Below, one piece after another: positions 6,583-17,279 of a stretch of DNA of 64,000 bases (position 1 is the stretch's first letter; every line of letters begins with the position of its first letter). Position numbers and translations under genes: made by a program. The notes below the pieces were generated by a model. It saw only the letters and a program-made list of their open reading frames with translations, was not told the DNA's origin and did not search any database. The DNA comes from Escherichia coli (GTDB lineage Bacteria > Pseudomonadota > Gammaproteobacteria > Enterobacterales > Enterobacteriaceae), in NCBI RefSeq assembly GCF_050920415.1, contig NZ_CP169309.1. The stretch is one strand, 5' to 3'.

Positions 6583-7641
6583 TCATCCGTTCTGACTGAC
6601 TAAATCCTGAACTTCCTTGACCGTCTGCTCAAAACGCTCAGTCTCCAGCTCAACGCCAATTGCACGACGTCCCAGCGCCATCGATGCTTTGACCGTCGAA
6701 CCCGACCCCATGAAAAAATCTGCAACCAGATCTCCCGGACGACTGCTTGCGCTGATTATCTGCTGCAACATTTCTGCCGGTTTTTCGCACGGATGTTTCC
6801 CGGGATAGTACTGCACCGGTTTATGCATCCACACATCGGTGTACGGCACCTGCACAGTCACACCGAAATACCGCCGCAAATTTTTATATTCTCTCAGCAG
6901 TTCCGTATACTGCCGGTTCAGTTCACTGTATGTGCTGACCAGCTGGTGGTGTGGCTGCTCCAGTTCACCGCGCTGATGTTTTTCTGCTGCAACACGCGCA
7001 AACAACGCCTGCAATTTGTTGTAATCAGCTTCGTTCGGTAACTGCCACTGACTGGTACCAAACCAGTGCGAAGCCATGTTTTTCTTTCCGGTGGCTTCCG
7101 CTATCTGTTTTGACGTTATTCCCAGTTCGGCACGAGCATCCCTGAAATACGATATCAGCGGTGCCATTATGTGCTGTTTGAGTTCCCTTTCTTTTGCCGC
7201 ATAGCCGTCACTTTTGCCGCGATATGGCCCCTGGTAATGTTCAGCAAACAGAACGCGCTCTGTGGCAGGAAAATATGCGCGCAGACTTTCTTTATTACAC
7301 CCATTCCAACGTCCGGACGGCTTCGCCCAGATGATATGGTTAAGCACGTTGAAACGTTCACGCATCATGATCTCAATATCAGATGCCAGGCGATGCCCAC
7401 AGAACAGGTAAAGGCTTCCGGCAGGTTTCAACACCCGCCAGAACTGGGCCAGACAGTGGTCCAGCCACTTAAGATAATCTTCGTCCCCTTTCCACTGATT
7501 GTCCCAACCGTTGGGTTTCACCTTGAAGTAAGGCGGATCGGTAACAATCAGGTCAATGGAATCATCAGGCAGGGACTGAATAAAATGCAGGCAATCAGCG
7601 TTGATTAAATCAACACTGTTTATTTTTACAGTATTTTTCAT
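6583..7641 (-). CDS. DNA methyltransferase (N6-adenine or N4-cytosine, DPPY motif), no adjacent restriction enzyme
   Basis: 352 aa with IVTDPPYF catalytic motif and C-terminal AdoMet motif DLVADFFMGSGST. Confidence 0.85.
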   Translation of the reverse strand: MKNTVKINSVDLINADCLHFIQSLPDDSIDLIVTDPPYFKVKPNGWDNQWKGDEDYLKWLDHCLAQFWRVLKPAGSLYLFCGHRLASDIEIMMRERFNVLNHIIWAKPSGRWNGCNKESLRAYFPATERVLFAEHYQGPYRGKSDGYAAKERELKQHIMAPLISYFRDARAELGITSKQIAEATGKKNMASHWFGTSQWQLPNEADYNKLQALFARVAAEKHQRGELEQPHHQLVSTYSELNRQYTELLREYKNLRRYFGVTVQVPYTDVWMHKPVQYYPGKHPCEKPAEMLQQIISASSRPGDLVADFFMGSGSTVKASMALGRRAIGVELETERFEQTVKEVQDLVSQNG

Positions 7642-10709: not shown

Positions 10710-11525
10710 TCAGTGAACGGTATCGAGCAGCTTTAACAGCTCAGGGAATCGGGATTCGAAGAAATGCGGCTGCGTCTCGCGCGGATTTGCAGGACTGGTG
10801 ATGTTCTTGCCGAACATGCAGCCTTTCGCCGTCAGCGACCAGAATTTTTTGATGTTGTTAATCGCGGTACGGCTGTATCGTTCGCGTTGTTCAACGATCC
10901 CCAGCTTCGCCATCTGGTGATATGCCTGATTAGCCGTCAGGCGGATACCATACTGCTTCAGCAGTGCACTCAGCGACAGCGTAGGGCGGCTTGAACCATC
11001 TGGCGCATCAGCAGGTGCATCAATGGCATAGATCGGCATAAGTTCAGGAAGACCTGCTACCTTTGATAATTTCTGGTATGCACCAAGTTTCGAGGAGTTT
11101 GACAGATTTAGAGTCTTTGCTGCTGATTCAAGCAGAATGACCCCGGATTTAATTTTGTCGGATGTGGTTTCTTCTGGTGATGAATTATGAAGCGCATCAA
11201 AAGTACGTATCACTTTTAAGCTGAATGCCGGGCTGATCCACATTGCATATGCATAGACCAGCTCTTTACAGACATACGTCCCACCATTGCGCCCCTGAAT
11301 GGTGATGACAGGAATACTACGGGAATCTCCCGTAGTTTCTTCTTCCAGTAATTCCACAAGAGCCTTCGTTTCAGGACGACGCATAAACTCGTGAACTTCC
11401 AGCGAACGGGAGGAGCGATTCTCACCAGCGGCAAGAAGAGCAGCTTTCTGAAGGTCGTTAAGACAGTAGTTAGATTCAAAGTACTGGCGCACAGAAACGC
11501 CATCAATTACAAGCAACTGATTCAT
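10710..11525 (-). CDS. KilA-N domain protein
   Basis: From MNQLLVIDGVSVRQYFESNYCLNDLQKAA...: KilA-N-like N-terminal pattern; AAGAGG-type RBS context. The longer ORF-track start at 11621 is rejected. Confidence 0.75.
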   Translation of the reverse strand: MNQLLVIDGVSVRQYFESNYCLNDLQKAALLAAGENRSSRSLEVHEFMRRPETKALVELLEEETTGDSRSIPVITIQGRNGGTYVCKELVYAYAMWISPAFSLKVIRTFDALHNSSPEETTSDKIKSGVILLESAAKTLNLSNSSKLGAYQKLSKVAGLPELMPIYAIDAPADAPDGSSRPTLSLSALLKQYGIRLTANQAYHQMAKLGIVEQRERYSRTAINNIKKFWSLTAKGCMFGKNITSPANPRETQPHFFESRFPELLKLLDTVH

Positions 11526-11676
11526 TGGTTTCTCCACAAATTTCGGGACTGCACTCCCTTTTCGTTGATGCAAGATGAACTTACTGCGATTTTTAATAGT
11601 TATCAAGGATACACTGTTCATAAATACAGTACCTTTAACGAGGTAATACCCAAATTTAGGGTGTTGCTCAATTCCG

Positions 11677-12072
11677 TTACCGAGTTGCTAATTTGCAACT
11701 CGCTTTTTCGTACTTACTGATAGTGATCTCGACCTTACCTTCCGGGATAACCGGTCCCCACTCCACCAGCATTCTTTTCACCTGACTGTCGTCTTCCCAC
11801 ACCCCCGCGTGGGTCAGGGCGTCAAACAGCGCCTTGTTATAGTTGTCCAGATCGCGGATCCGGTTATCCGGAGGAAACAACACGATCTCCACTGAAGCAG
11901 GTGCCGACGTTGGTTTCGGCAGACGACGTAACTGCTCAACTATTGCTGCGCACGCCGCGCTCTGGAATTTTCGCCCCGCCGCGCTTATCAGGCTCTTACC
12001 AGCAAACGCCCCTTTGTTGGGGTGTCGCCAGTACGTGTTCACGCTGGGCGGGAAAGGCAGTATTAGCTTCAT
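11677..12072 (-). CDS. rusA: Holliday junction resolvase RusA
   Basis: 131 aa with RusA signature DxDN (RIRDLDNYNKALFDALTHAGVWEDDSQV). Confidence 0.9.
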   Translation of the reverse strand: MKLILPFPPSVNTYWRHPNKGAFAGKSLISAAGRKFQSAACAAIVEQLRRLPKPTSAPASVEIVLFPPDNRIRDLDNYNKALFDALTHAGVWEDDSQVKRMLVEWGPVIPEGKVEITISKYEKASCKLATR

Positions 12073-12395
12073 ACTTTCAGGCCCCTCTCATGTAACCAGT
12101 GGGTTGCACGCAGCCTGGCGTTTTCCTCACCGGCAAGCAGTGAGCGGATAATCCCGACCGCCTCGCTGTCGTCGTCCTTCATCGCAGTATGAAGCGTTAT
12201 CCCCCGGGCCACGCCACGCTTTATCGTGATGACGCCTTTTTTCTCCAGTGCGCGAAGATGCTCCACCGCTGCATTCACTGAACGGTATCCCAGCATGGTT
12301 GCCACCTCCTGATTGGTTGGCGGGAAGCCACGTTCTTTCTGATAAGAAATCAGCATATCCAGCACCTGCTGCTGGCATTGAGTTAACGTCGTCAT
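12069..12395 (-). CDS. LexA N-terminal-like winged-helix DNA-binding protein (no peptidase domain)
   Basis: MTTLTQCQQQVLDMLISYQKERGFPPTNQEVATMLGYRSVNAAVEHLRALEKKGVITIKRGVARGITL parallels the LexA N-terminal domain; ATG overlaps the upstream gene stop (ATGA). Confidence 0.75.
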   Translation of the reverse strand: MTTLTQCQQQVLDMLISYQKERGFPPTNQEVATMLGYRSVNAAVEHLRALEKKGVITIKRGVARGITLHTAMKDDDSEAVGIIRSLLAGEENARLRATHWLHERGLKV

Positions 12396-13044
12396 GCCGC
12401 CATCTCCCTGACCAGTTTTTCCGCCTGCTGGCGAACCTGCGCCAGAAACGCCTCACCACATGCCTCAAGTTCATCGCGCCCGATGTAGCTGATTGCCGGT
12501 CCCTTCCAGGTCTGTCGAAAACAGCAATAGCACCAGCGAAGAAAGCGCCTGTCGGCACCTGCTTCTCATCTTTCGGGATAAACCAGGCAGGCAGTTCAAA
12601 ACCAATACGCCCGCGAATAAAAGCAATATGATCTGCATCTTCCGGCCACCACACTTCGCTGGTGGCAGCTTTGATCAGGAAAACATAGCGCCCGCCTTTA
12701 TCACGCATGGCACTGGCATGTTTCATGATGTAACGCATGCCGGTGATGTATTGCCCCTCATGCTGACTGGCGCGGCTGTATGGGGGATTACCAAAGGCAG
12801 CACCTTTAAGCTCCGCAAGACGTTCTGACCAGTCATGCGCCAGCGCGTTGTCTTCCGCCGTGTAATACGCGGTACATTTGGCGTTATCACCGTCAGTAAA
12901 CAGATCCAGGACAAACGGGCCAAACAGGGTGTTAATTCCCCAGAAAATGTTACCCGGCGTGCGCCACTGATCGCCCACTTCCTTCAGTTCATGGGCTGGT
13001 TTGTTCCGCAGTTCCACCAGCGCCCGGCAATATTTATTACTCAT
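12392..13044 (-). pseudogene. Phage Dam-family N6-adenine DNA methyltransferase with a 1-nt frameshift near 12505-12522
   Basis: N-terminal frame: MSNKYCRALVEL...GAAFGNPPYS...FFAGAIAVFD. C-terminal frame: QTWKGPAISYIGRDELEACGEAFLAQVRQQAEKLVREMAA, ending in TGA overlapping the next ATG. One extra A in the A4 run (about 12518-12521) would join them. The 316-aa ORF-track read-through has an Arg-rich junk tail. Confidence 0.7.
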
Positions 13045-13532
13045 TAAGCCCCCACGTAATTCCCTGACAGATACCACTCTTCACCCGATGCAGCGCGCTT
13101 GCTACTTTTCCGTAAGCACCGCTCACGACGCGCCAGAAAATTGTTTCGTTCTGGCAGGGAGTGGCTTTCACGGAATGCCGCCATCCACACGGTTGCAGCA
13201 CGACGAAATAAGCCCCTGGACTCCAGTTCTTCCGCCTGGCGGGTCAGGCACAAAATCACCCGTGGATCGTTAGTGCCGACATAGAAATTGCGCACAGGTC
13301 TGGTTTCACGAACTGGTTGTGGTTCCGGCTCCTGCGCTCTCTCAGTCAGGCGTGGGAAATGTCTGCGTGTATCTCCTTCACAACGGTGAGCCACACGCCC
13401 ACTCTGACGTAACTTGCTTGCTGACTGCAGAACGCGCTGTCGTGAGTAACCAGCAAAAGCATCCGCAATGTCTCCGGAAGTACACCCCGGATGGGCTTCA
13501 ATGAATTTCTGAACTTCATTCAAAAGACTCAT
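13044..13532 (-). CDS. Hypothetical protein with N-terminal HTH-like region
   Basis: 162-aa ORF; stop overlaps the methyltransferase start (TAATG); no family recognised. Confidence 0.6.
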   Translation of the reverse strand: MSLLNEVQKFIEAHPGCTSGDIADAFAGYSRQRVLQSASKLRQSGRVAHRCEGDTRRHFPRLTERAQEPEPQPVRETRPVRNFYVGTNDPRVILCLTRQAEELESRGLFRRAATVWMAAFRESHSLPERNNFLARRERCLRKSSKRAASGEEWYLSGNYVGA

Positions 13533-14574: not shown

Positions 14575-15722
14575 TTGCGCCCCCTTACCTCGGAAGAGTT
14601 CAGCGACGAATGAATAAGACGGGCAAGAAATGCCGCATCGTTAATTCGGTCATACAGACTTACAGCCAGCGGTGATTCAGCTTTTTCCAGCATGGGATAA
14701 AGCTGCTGCAACCAGACCTGATGAATTGATGAAATGTAGGAATAGAGTACGCTGGCGTTATGTGCAACGTCGCTCGGTACAGCGGGCTTTGAAAGCTGTT
14801 TCTCCATCTGGTTAAAGGCATTGATGTATGCCTCTTTGAACTGGGCAGCACGTTTACCCGTGAAACCCATAGCAAGAAACGCAAAACCGTCGCGGGTTAT
14901 TTGATAGCAAGGTAGTTTGCGGCCTGTGCAATCGGTGTAATCACTCACCGAAAAATTGCGGGCAGTGAATGATGCGGAGCATTCAAGCGTGCGGATCTTT
15001 TTCAGTACATCGTCATGACGTTTGGAGAAGAAGTTGGCAACAGCCAGGGATGAAGTAACAGCCTGACCATCAACGATGGCAATTTCAGGTTGAGTGAGGG
15101 TTGGGATCGTAGCCATGATGGCAGCCTCTTTGGTGATTTTTAATAACTCACCACCAAGGCTTTCCACGACCTTATTGGTGGTGAGACGTACAGGGGTGGA
15201 AATACCGGTCACCAAAGAACCCGGCCCAACCGAAGTTGGCCCTGCACGCCCCACCATAATTTGGGCGTAATGCTGCTCATGACACAAAAAAACCGCAAGA
15301 GCGCGGTTGTGCGCTTTGGTGAATTCCGGGTTTCCACGCCCGGCACCCGCTTTATAAGGTGCCTGAACAGTGTAACGTCCCGGAATGGCAGAATCAATGT
15401 GCTGGTGGTCCTTCACACTCAACAAAATCACGCCTGAATTTCCACAAAGGGCTAAAGCACTCATGCGGGTAGTCTTTGCGAAGATAGATAACGCGCTGTG
15501 TTTCTGGCTCCCAACGAATAACATGAACATAAAGTCCTCTTCCGTCACGAAACCAGCGGTTAAGTTCCTGCACAACTCGCCCCCCACAGTCAGGTAAAGT
15601 TCTCTGTGGTTACTTACAGCCAGGAGATTTGGTAATCTGCATTCATGCCGTAACAACAGGTGTTCAGCGACGCTGACCACCAGCTGTTGCGACAAATGGT
15701 TATTTGCCGTTAAACTGTTCAT
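14571..15722 (-). CDS. Rha-family phage regulatory protein with about 200-aa N-terminal extension of unknown function
   Basis: C-terminal half from MATIPTLTQPEIAIVDGQAVTSSLAVANFFSKRHDDVLKKIRTLEC... is Rha-like; N-terminal half is in the same frame with no stop; ATG at 15722 overlaps the upstream TGA (ATGA); an internal ATG at 15116 has an AAGAGG RBS. Confidence 0.7.
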   Translation of the reverse strand: MNSLTANNHLSQQLVVSVAEHLLLRHECRLPNLLAVSNHRELYLTVGGELCRNLTAGFVTEEDFMFMLFVGSQKHSALSIFAKTTRMSALALCGNSGVILLSVKDHQHIDSAIPGRYTVQAPYKAGAGRGNPEFTKAHNRALAVFLCHEQHYAQIMVGRAGPTSVGPGSLVTGISTPVRLTTNKVVESLGGELLKITKEAAIMATIPTLTQPEIAIVDGQAVTSSLAVANFFSKRHDDVLKKIRTLECSASFTARNFSVSDYTDCTGRKLPCYQITRDGFAFLAMGFTGKRAAQFKEAYINAFNQMEKQLSKPAVPSDVAHNASVLYSYISSIHQVWLQQLYPMLEKAESPLAVSLYDRINDAAFLARLIHSSLNSSEVRGRK

Positions 15723-16514: not shown

Positions 16515-16604
16515 ACAATATGTACCTCTTATATACATATTACATGATTGAAATGAACCTTCAAGATACTTGTACCCTATCGGTACAAAGGTTTTAATTT
16601 CGTT
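16515..16604. promoter_or_regulatory. OR region: divergent pR/pRM promoters with at least two operator palindromes
   Basis: ATGTA-N9-TACAT at about 16520-16538 and TTGTA-N9-TACAA at about 16570-16588, between divergent cro and cI starts. Confidence 0.6.
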
Positions 16605-17279
16605 ATGAAAACAGTCCATGACATCCGGCGGTCTAACGCCAGAAAACTGAGAGATGGTGTTGGCGGGAATTCTTCCTTTGCCACCATGATTGATCGCGAA
16701 CCAACCCAGACCAGCAGGTTTATGGGAGATGGTGCTACTAAAAATATCGGTGACAGCATGGCACGGCACATCGAAAAATGTTTCGACCTGCCTGTCGGAT
16801 GGCTTGATCAAGAACACCAGACAACGAACATCACAAAAAAACCTGATGTTTCAATCACTAATAAACAAATAACGTTAGTCCCTGTCATATCATGGGTACA
16901 GGCCGGAGCATGGAAAGAAGTTGGCTATTCTGAGGTTGATTTGAGCACAACAGAAACATATCCCTGCCCTGTACCCTGTGGCGAAATGACTTATATATTG
17001 AGGGTGATTGGTGATTCAATGATTGATGAGTACCGTCCGGGGGACATGATTTTTGTCGATCCAGAAGTACCAGCCTGCCACGGCGATGACGTTATTGCAT
17101 TGATGCACGATACAGGTGAAACCACCTTCAAAAGGTTGATAGAAGACGGGACACAGCGTTATCTCAAAGCATTAAACCCCAACTGGCCTGAGCCTTACAT
17201 TAAGATAAACGGTAATTGCTCTATCATTGGTACAGTTATTTTCTCAGGAAAACCAAGAAGATACAAAATTAAAGCCTGA
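16605..17279 (+). CDS. cI: CI-type prophage repressor (HTH plus S24 peptidase/LexA-like autocleavage domain)
   Basis: 224 aa; C-terminal S24 domain with GDSM motif (YILRVIGDSMIDEYRPGDMIFVD). Confidence 0.9.
   Translation: MKTVHDIRRSNARKLRDGVGGNSSFATMIDREPTQTSRFMGDGATKNIGDSMARHIEKCFDLPVGWLDQEHQTTNITKKPDVSITNKQITLVPVISWVQAGAWKEVGYSEVDLSTTETYPCPVPCGEMTYILRVIGDSMIDEYRPGDMIFVDPEVPACHGDDVIALMHDTGETTFKRLIEDGTQRYLKALNPNWPEPYIKINGNCSIIGTVIFSGKPRRYKIKA

Follow-up and report, generated by a model that had tools for sequence, protein, structure and literature searches.

Why should a lambdoid prophage carry a LexA DNA-binding domain that stands on its own, without the autocleavage machinery of LexA? This question is raised by a gene in a 64,000-nucleotide stretch of Escherichia coli DNA (contig NZ_CP169309.1 of assembly GCF_050920415.1), referred to below as the window. 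A first-pass annotation had described the gene product as a stand-alone LexA-type winged helix of about 108 amino acids (aa), devoid of a peptidase domain and encoded in a nin-like region. Both points were borne out by our analysis: the gene lies between phage dam and rusA genes in an SfV-like lambdoid prophage, and its product is certainly a LexA DNA-binding domain that is encoded by the phage in a nin operon, lacks autocleavage machinery and ends in a two-helix tail of its own. As to its role, we tentatively propose, with rather less than even confidence, that the protein may be a RecA-insensitive, CTGT-reading LexA paralogue, which would re-occupy SOS-type operators once the host LexA is gone, in the manner of a brake or a second repressor.

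The identity of the protein (MTTLTQCQQQVLDMLISYQKERGFPPTNQEVATMLGYRSVNAAVEHLRALEKKGVITIKRGVARGITLHTAMKDDDSEAVGIIRSLLAGEENARLRATHWLHERGLKV; about 12 kDa, C-terminal end ...GLKV) was established by several independent comparisons. The Pfam profile PF01726 (LexA_DNA_bind) matches residues 1-65 over all 65 profile positions (E=2.9e-19; 69 bits, cutoff 23.7), and the same search detected neither Peptidase_S24 nor any second domain. The lexA equivalog model TIGR00498 of NCBIfam is aligned over its first 91 positions only and scores 70.6 bits, below the cutoff of 110.95. By contrast, PHROG 362 (“transcriptional repressor”) spans the complete protein (all 106 profile positions are aligned, to residues 1-108; E=1.1e-59). 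In BLASTP, E. coli LexA is 43% identical over 90 aa (E=9e-22), with the LexA alignment ending at residue 86, and the top solved structures matched by sequence are the N-terminal domain of E. coli LexA and full-length LexA, aligned gap-free over residues 2-69. Pfam, PHROG 362 and Foldseek alike place the protein with the LexA type of helix-turn-helix (HTH) domain. The start codon is preceded by a Shine-Dalgarno sequence (GGGAG at 12404-12408, 8 nt 5' of the ATG). In the annotation of an identical genome the 108-aa protein is WP_000210144.1, labelled “LexA repressor” or “LexA family transcriptional regulator”.

The Ser119/Lys156 dyad of LexA is absent. Residues A88-G89 of the window allele align with the Ala84-Gly85 cleavage site of LexA; this pair varies within the family (LLANEE, LLVGEE), and the possibility that “LLAGEE” is a relic of a cleavage site was rejected on account of this variation and of the missing catalytic domain. 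The winged helix is derived from a gammaproteobacterial LexA, in which a conserved two-helix tail replaces the hinge, the cleavage site and the S24 peptidase/dimerisation domain. Since the catalytic domain is lacking, as the sequence shows, RecA* cannot inactivate the 108-aa protein. Nor is the protein a CI/LexA-like S24 phage repressor, in which the DNA-binding domain is fused to an S24 autopeptidase and encoded at the immunity locus; the immunity repressor of this prophage is the product of a separate S24-type ymfK-like gene (16605-17279) on the opposite strand. A role in a defence system was rejected as well, as PADLOC gave only a marginal match to a CARF model, which we took for an HTH cross-match.

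An AlphaFold2 model of the protein (predicted local distance difference test, pLDDT, 83) contains helices at residues 6-22, 28-35 and 40-52 and strands at 56-58 and 66-68. The best Foldseek matches are the LexA-DNA complexes 3jso and 3jsp, with a root-mean-square deviation (rmsd) of 1.0 Å over 67-69 residues and 49-51% identity. The residues of LexA that contact bases are S39, N41, A42, E44 and E45 (as relayed in PMC3091678). The recognition helix of the window protein (S39, N41, A42, V44, E45) retains four of these five, with E44 replaced by valine. In LexA and throughout the family of homologues sharing the tail, no variation is seen at S39, at K53 or at R64-G65-I66 of the wing, and hardly any at N41. 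The tail is modelled with a pLDDT of about 85, and Foldseek found no structural match for it in the PDB. Its motif, E..(I/L)(I/L)RxLL....A..RA..WL..RG, is kept in homologues down to 38-41% identity, A97 and L101 being invariant.

It might be supposed that such a truncated gene is what is left, in decay and without function, of a repressor gene (LexA or CI-type) that was once full-length, the more so as the alignment with LexA runs to residue 86 and takes in an “AGE” that mimics the cleavage site, and as several pseudogenes are present in the prophage. This explanation is effectively refuted. Both the length of the protein and its tail are retained in homologues ranging from 100% to 38% identity, the gene has a good Shine-Dalgarno sequence and a conserved operon position, and the “AG” pair varies in the manner described above, hence it is no constrained relic. 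Furthermore, the 30 nucleotide alleles examined encode 7 protein variants, with nonsynonymous divergence (dN) of no more than 0.008, synonymous divergence (dS) of up to 0.155 and a dN/dS of about 0.03-0.3, and none of the copies in 80 IMG/VR loci is disrupted. The pattern of substitutions indicates that the gene is functional, conserved and under strong purifying selection, and speaks against relic status.

Among 5426 complete E. coli genomes, the segment composed of dam, the LexA-like gene and rusA was detected in 2671. Its carriers include SfV (orf42), SfII, SfIV, cdtI, mEp460, Ayreon, 1720a-02 and Stx2a/Stx2c-converting phages. Depositors have labelled the product “LexA family transcriptional regulator”, “LexA DNA binding domain protein” and similarly. 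The family is thus already annotated in thousands of records and in PHROGs, and the gene itself is no new discovery; our literature search found no functional study of this enterobacterial LexA-like family. A 95%-identical copy of the gene was also encountered in a 2.5-kb contig (JAIJJM010000478.1, locus L016) binned with a Collinsella sp. metagenome-assembled genome, which is almost certainly a mis-binned E. coli phage contig.

The prophage is integrated beside yjjG and accounts for 24.5 kb of the window; a 1501-bp query from its nin region (11600-13100) matches E. coli MFDS1022581 (NZ_CP169399) with 100% identity. Its early rightward operon, on the minus strand, comprises ymfT (cro-like), ymfL, rha, a small open reading frame (ORF), an O-like replication gene, perC, dam and the LexA-like gene, followed 3' by rusA, a gap of 151 bp, kilA-N, a hypothetical gene, DUF968 and Q. 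The location of the LexA-like gene in this delayed-early operon, between dam and rusA and 5' of Q, suggests that the protein is made on prophage induction. The first-pass annotation had noted that the ATG of the gene overlaps the upstream stop codon and had proposed coupling to the methyltransferase. The overlap holds for the native reading frame of dam, whose stop (12392-12394) shares the ATGA at 12392-12395 with the LexA-like start. In the window, though, dam has suffered a one-nucleotide deletion, so that its frame passes 12392-12394, ends at 12127 and covers 269 nt of the LexA-like ORF; as this frame no longer stops at the LexA-like ATG, translational coupling to dam has probably been lost in the window strain. 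PGAP likewise tags dam as “frameshifted” in the 100%-identical genome. The coupling is seen in relatives in which dam is intact (L002, SfV, mEp460). The stop codon of the LexA-like gene in turn overlaps the rusA start (ATGA at 12069-12072).

The gene order was compared among eight lineages of the tail family and one tail-less relative (window/SfV, P0124, P0126, mEp390, P0138, P0159, P0207, P0239 and P0141). In all of them RusA is encoded 3' of the LexA-like gene, either directly or after one small gene, with DUF968 and Q usually next, and the LexA-like gene always lies 5' of Q in the early operon. A methyltransferase gene is found immediately 5' in five of the eight tail-family lineages and belongs to three different families (PF05869, PF00145+PF02086 and PF00145-like), whereas none adjoins the LexA-like gene in mEp390, L011, L101, L007 or L008. 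The constant partner of the family is therefore rusA with the nin slot, rather than the methyltransferase. A profile search of genome contigs for diverse relatives yielded 3 loci. Orphan LexA domains of nin regions also occur in a different arrangement: in Proteus phage vB_BPM-V3 (L009, 3878-4357) a single ORF of 159 aa joins LexA_DNA_bind to a NinF motif, and ninG comes next.

The ATGA overlaps with both neighbours, a methyltransferase of one family or another at the 5' side of five lineages and the unfailing presence of RusA at the 3' side are what might be expected of a local controller, which would tune the adjacent methyltransferase in the fashion of a C protein, or else rusA and the downstream nin genes, and would have no part in the SOS response. 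We consider this quite unlikely, since several lineages lack an adjoining methyltransferase, the gene is intact here despite the dam pseudogene, and no operator-like repeat is present 5' of dam or rusA. The C proteins of restriction-modification systems have an Xre-type HTH and are accompanied by a C-box and an adjoining restriction gene; the window protein has a LexA-type fold, no restriction gene is present, and the product of dam, here a pseudogene, belongs to the orphan methyltransferases. Moreover, the order of nin genes is conserved in any case, which makes adjacency weak evidence.

If the protein reads CTGT, as its recognition helix suggests, suitable sites should be sought in the prophage and the host, as the first-pass annotation had advised. 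Exact CTGT-N8-ACAG sites occur four times in the window against 0.69 expected, and all four lie in the prophage part (0.36 expected); with spacers of 0-20 nt tried in CTGT-Nx-ACAG, enrichment was observed at x=8 only. The sites were scored with a position weight matrix built from 19 E. coli SOS boxes, and the scores are rough rankings only; the core pattern and the shuffled controls do not depend on the matrix. Two of the four are canonical boxes, whose scores (21.6 and 22.7 bits) are in the same range as those of genuine boxes from E. coli; the next site reaches 14.9 bits, and the host DNA (40 kb) contains none above 10. The first box sits in the 151-bp gap between rusA and kilA-N, about 90 bp 5' of the KilA-N start (11525), and the KilA-N gene beside it may be a LexA-controlled antirepressor-like gene. 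The second covers codons 3-9 of an N6_N4 DNA methyltransferase gene 3' of Q. This second box recurs in SfV (L003), in 26 out of 80 related loci and, 5' of the called start, in the distant prophage L103 (7739-7758).

The remaining two CTGT-N8-ACAG sites were dropped. One (15604-15619) is weak (7.6 bits) and lies within the Rha gene, and the other, at 1038-1053, forms a rho-independent terminator stem (CTGCTGTG..CACAGCAG, then a T-run). The whole hairpin of this terminator (1034-1057, ACTGCTGTG-CTCCAA-CACAGCAGT, then a T-run) stands 3' of a ylcI/ynfO-like gene and is an example of a false positive for pattern-based scans for SOS boxes. A search for a private operator among the intergenic palindromes of the prophage returned terminators and probable cI/cro operators only. 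Between ymfK and ymfT there are two perfect palindromes, at 16517-16541 (AATATGTAC..GTACATATT) and 16570-16588 (TTGTACC..GGTACAA), which probably serve as the immunity operators of the window prophage.

Strong boxes are a common feature of the related loci as well. Their density is about 1 per 11 kb, compared with 3 in 1.29 Mb of shuffled sequence, and three modules recur: the coding region of the cI linker, the kilA-N gap and the 5' end of the methyltransferase gene. The first of these is a 25.8-bit box (TACTGTTTTTACATACAGTA) located inside the linker-coding part of a cI-like S24 repressor gene in L020 (5549-5568) and 19 other related loci; it lies about 4.5 kb 5' of the LexA-like gene and is absent from the ymfK-like repressor gene of the window.

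In four distant lineages (L008, L011, L101 and L103) a strong box is placed just 5' of the transcription unit of the LexA-like gene. A search with orfX, a small gene that is a conserved neighbour, yielded 80 viral loci: the LexA-like ORF directly follows orfX in 78 of 80, a box of at least 17 bits lies within 1.25 kb 5' in 74 of 80, and these boxes fall into at least 8 distinct classes of offset and sequence. In L117 the box overlaps the -10 element of a TTGAAC-N17-TACTGT promoter, which is followed by dinI, orfX, the LexA-like gene, orfY, DUF968 and a Q-like gene. A conserved cassette, in which an SOS-box promoter precedes orfX, the LexA-like gene, orfY, DUF968 and Q, was recognised in L117 (4662-7541), L007, L011, L101 and L103. 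Its members include dinI (in L101 a 95-aa RecA_C-like gene), orfX (75-96 aa, no Pfam family) and orfY (about 67 aa); none of the genes orfX, orfY and dinI is present in the window. An SOS-controlled promoter directly 5' of Q could provide a repressor-independent route to the late genes. These cassettes of the sister subfamily, with their known or likely modulators of RecA and the SOS response, tie the family to SOS circuitry, short of proving that the boxes are bound.

The course of events that we envisage is as follows. The protein would be expressed from the rightward early transcript upon prophage induction, at a time when the host LexA is already cleaved, and would bind operators of the CTGT type, which resemble SOS boxes, by means of a recognition helix almost the same as that of LexA. 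The tail would supply the self-association or the partner contact that is otherwise given by the C-terminal domain. RecA* could not inactivate the protein, given the missing catalytic domain, and SOS-box promoters would consequently be re-occupied or re-programmed, both at the KilA-N and methyltransferase boxes of the phage and, perhaps, on the chromosome of the host. The outcome may be an SOS brake or a late re-repressor. A broader version, in which truncated LexA homologues of lambdoid phages are widespread RecA-proof re-repressors that shut down the host SOS regulon together with the LexA-controlled genes of co-resident prophages, and so time induction, seems to us improbable, although worth stating.

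Several observations weigh against the proposed re-occupation of SOS boxes. The box in the rusA/kilA-N gap belongs to a minority KilA-N mosaic module, found in 185 of 5426 genomes as opposed to 2671 for the LexA-like gene; the gap measures only 19 bp in SfV and mEp460, and SfV, mEp460 and WGPS2 have no gap box. The methyltransferase box lies in coding sequence, and its retention could be explained by the peptide TVKINS. A promoter scanner detected no sigma-70 promoter at the SOS boxes of the window. Among 41 fully covered related loci (-6 to +6.8 kb), 30 have at least one strong box and 11 have none. The boxes are modular and untied to the LexA-like gene, and could all be explained equally well as sites for the host LexA. 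The protein itself gives further grounds for caution: no member of the tail family has Glu at position 44, and the absence of E44 could alter the binding specificity. Members of the dinI-linked subfamily have SSSNAVLLHL as their recognition helix, where Leu takes the place of E45, so the reading of CTGT is not necessarily family-wide. Fragmentary metagenomic ORFs confounded a tabulation of residues 44 and 45 in short versus full-length homologues (252 proteins), which was left out of account. LexA dimerises via its C-terminal domain, and the dimer is needed for tight binding to the palindrome. The isolated N-terminal domain is a weak binder, and a pseudo-dimer of the window protein (two copies joined by a 30-residue Gly/Ser linker, modelled by AlphaFold2 with a paired alignment) had no confident interface (predicted template modelling score, pTM, 0.34; pLDDT 68).

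The conserved amphipathic tail is an obvious candidate for a substitute of the missing dimerisation function. The N-terminal domain of LexA alone keeps some binding to, and repression from, SOS boxes, which is why cells clear it via ClpXP (PMC10584840). A further group of proteins consists solely of tandem LexA_DNA_bind domains (about 160 aa; P0156, P0161, P0163 and about 12 others, also L015 27-521). They resemble two LexA winged helices joined covalently into a pseudo-dimer, and their existence suggests that such domains work in pairs. Alternatively, the lack of a confidently predicted dimer, in combination with the conserved recognition helix, might be taken to mean that the protein competes with LexA: monomers seated on CTGT half-sites, or non-productive binding, would hinder the rebinding of LexA and thereby prolong or amplify the SOS response. 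This strikes us as very unlikely. Occupancy of a promoter operator normally represses, whichever protein is bound, and the partnership of relatives with dinI, an SOS-damping gene, points in the opposite direction. A heterodimer with LexA is impossible, as the C-terminal interface is absent, and the direct interference with host LexA suggested by the first-pass annotation thus gained no support.

The changed residues at position 44 (family-wide) and at position 45 (in some members), and the invariable placement of the gene 5' of Q in the early operon, also lend themselves to a different explanation, namely that the protein is an activator that recognises an operator of its own, distinct from the SOS box, and, instead of repressing SOS promoters, turns on a phage promoter that is used later, for instance one near Q/PR' or that of a moron. 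There is a precedent in GIL01 gp6: this truncated LexA homologue activates late genes and has its binding site, GaCACAnnTGTGaC, over the -35 element of P3 (PMC6182141). BLASTP of the window protein against GIL01 gp6 gave no alignment at E<=100, from which we conclude that truncation occurred twice independently, once in Bacillus LexA and once in gammaproteobacterial LexA. The late genes of lambdoid phages are already under Q antitermination, the scan of intergenic palindromes in the prophage brought up no recurrent candidate operator, and the retention of S39, N41, A42 and E45 favours LexA-like specificity in the window subfamily. We therefore regard the activator as an unlikely alternative, and return to the RecA-insensitive occupant of SOS-type operators as the preferred reading.

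Table 1. Features of the LexA-like locus in the window, and SOS boxes 5' of LexA-like genes in four related loci (coordinates of the last four rows are those of the respective locus; a coordinate in L001 minus 401 gives the window coordinate)
Feature	Location	Strand	Basis or score	Genes that follow
Truncated LexA homologue, coding sequence, 108 aa (PHROG 362)	12069..12395	minus	ATG start, TGA stop; Pfam/PHROG	
LexA-type winged helix-turn-helix, codons 1-68	12192..12395	minus	AlphaFold2, Foldseek, LexA alignment	
Two amphipathic C-terminal helices (73-88, 93-103), codons 73-103	12087..12179	minus	AlphaFold2 model	
Phage N-6-adenine methyltransferase dam (PF05869/TIGR01712), pseudogene	12392..13044	minus	Pfam, NCBIfam, PGAP	
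1-nt deletion in dam, one A of GACAAGACC lost, giving GACAGACC	12513..12514	minus	alignment with L002 and SfV	
rusA (Holliday-junction resolvase)	11677..12072	minus	Pfam RusA, E=6.4e-15	
Canonical SOS box TACTGTATTTATGAACAGTG, candidate target	11612..11631	minus-strand sequence	exact CTGT-N8-ACAG, 21.6 bits	
Canonical SOS box TACTGTAAAAATAAACAGTG, candidate target	7614..7633	minus-strand sequence	exact CTGT-N8-ACAG, 22.7 bits	
SOS box in L008	3231-3250		24.9 bits	rha, LexA domain, DUF968
SOS box in L011	5560-5579		20.1 bits	orfX, LexA-like
Two overlapping colicin-style SOS boxes in L101	4242-4277		26.2 and 17.6 bits	RecA_C-like gene, orfX, LexA-like
SOS box in L103	4561-4580		26.7 bits	orfX, LexA-like

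Other parts of the prophage deserve brief mention. In the annotation of the identical genome further prophage genes, among them a lysis protein gene and hypothetical genes, are frameshifted or interrupted, and either decay of the prophage or indel errors in the assembly may lie behind the frameshifted genes. A weak partial match (E=7.5e-10) links the KilA-N protein (10710-11525) to PDC-S22, a candidate defence family of PADLOC.

The SOS response controls prophage induction, the release of Shiga toxin, mutagenesis and persistence. Stx2c- and Stx2a-converting prophages, SfV-like ones and many more carry the LexA-like gene, which occurs in roughly half of the complete E. coli genomes. If binding to SOS boxes and resistance to RecA* hold true, the protein would constitute a phage-encoded brake on the SOS network, or an element that rewires it. 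Binding to SOS boxes could then affect the timing of induction, the cross-talk between co-resident prophages with LexA-controlled antirepressors, and the response of the host to damage. Should the protein use an operator of its own instead, it would represent a second, independently evolved gp6-type recruitment of a LexA domain as a regulator of phage development.

Comparison with known systems places the protein beside E. coli LexA itself (PDB 1lea, 1jhh and 3jso), with which it shares the winged helix (about 50% identity over 68 residues, rmsd 1.0 Å) and the residues S39, N41, A42, E45, K53 and R64-G65-I66 of the wing. It differs from LexA in ending at residue 108 without the S24/dimerisation domain, in having a tail of its own and in being phage-encoded in a nin operon. 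The product of LexA cleavage (residues 1-84) is likewise a LexA DNA-binding domain without the C-terminal domain; this fragment exposes a ClpX degron and is quickly degraded, whereas the folded tail of the phage protein (...GLKV) is predicted to be free of that degron.

The other members of PHROG 362 (SfV orf42, mEp460 gp46 and the proteins of cdtI, SfII and Stx2c phages) are 94-100% identical to the window protein and occupy the same position between dam and rusA; the window differs from them in the frameshift of the 5' dam gene and in its 3' KilA-N module, which is the variant with the SOS box. More distant are the cassettes of Klebsiella-type lambdoid prophages with the order dinI, orfX, LexA-like gene, orfY (for example in phage ST846-OXA48phi9.1). 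They encode a homologous winged helix and tail (38-42% identity) in the same slot 5' of DUF968 and Q. Unlike the window, they have an SOS-box promoter of their own, dinI (or a RecA_C-like gene) and orfX, and E45 is changed to Leu.

The closest studied analogue is gp6 of the Bacillus tectivirus GIL01. Both proteins are phage-encoded truncated forms of LexA specified by an early operon, and the switch of GIL01 is also tied to the SOS response. The GIL01 protein has 66 aa and no tail, descends from Bacillus LexA, recognises a palindrome of its own and functions in the context of a tectivirus, whereas the window protein belongs to the nin region of a lambdoid prophage.

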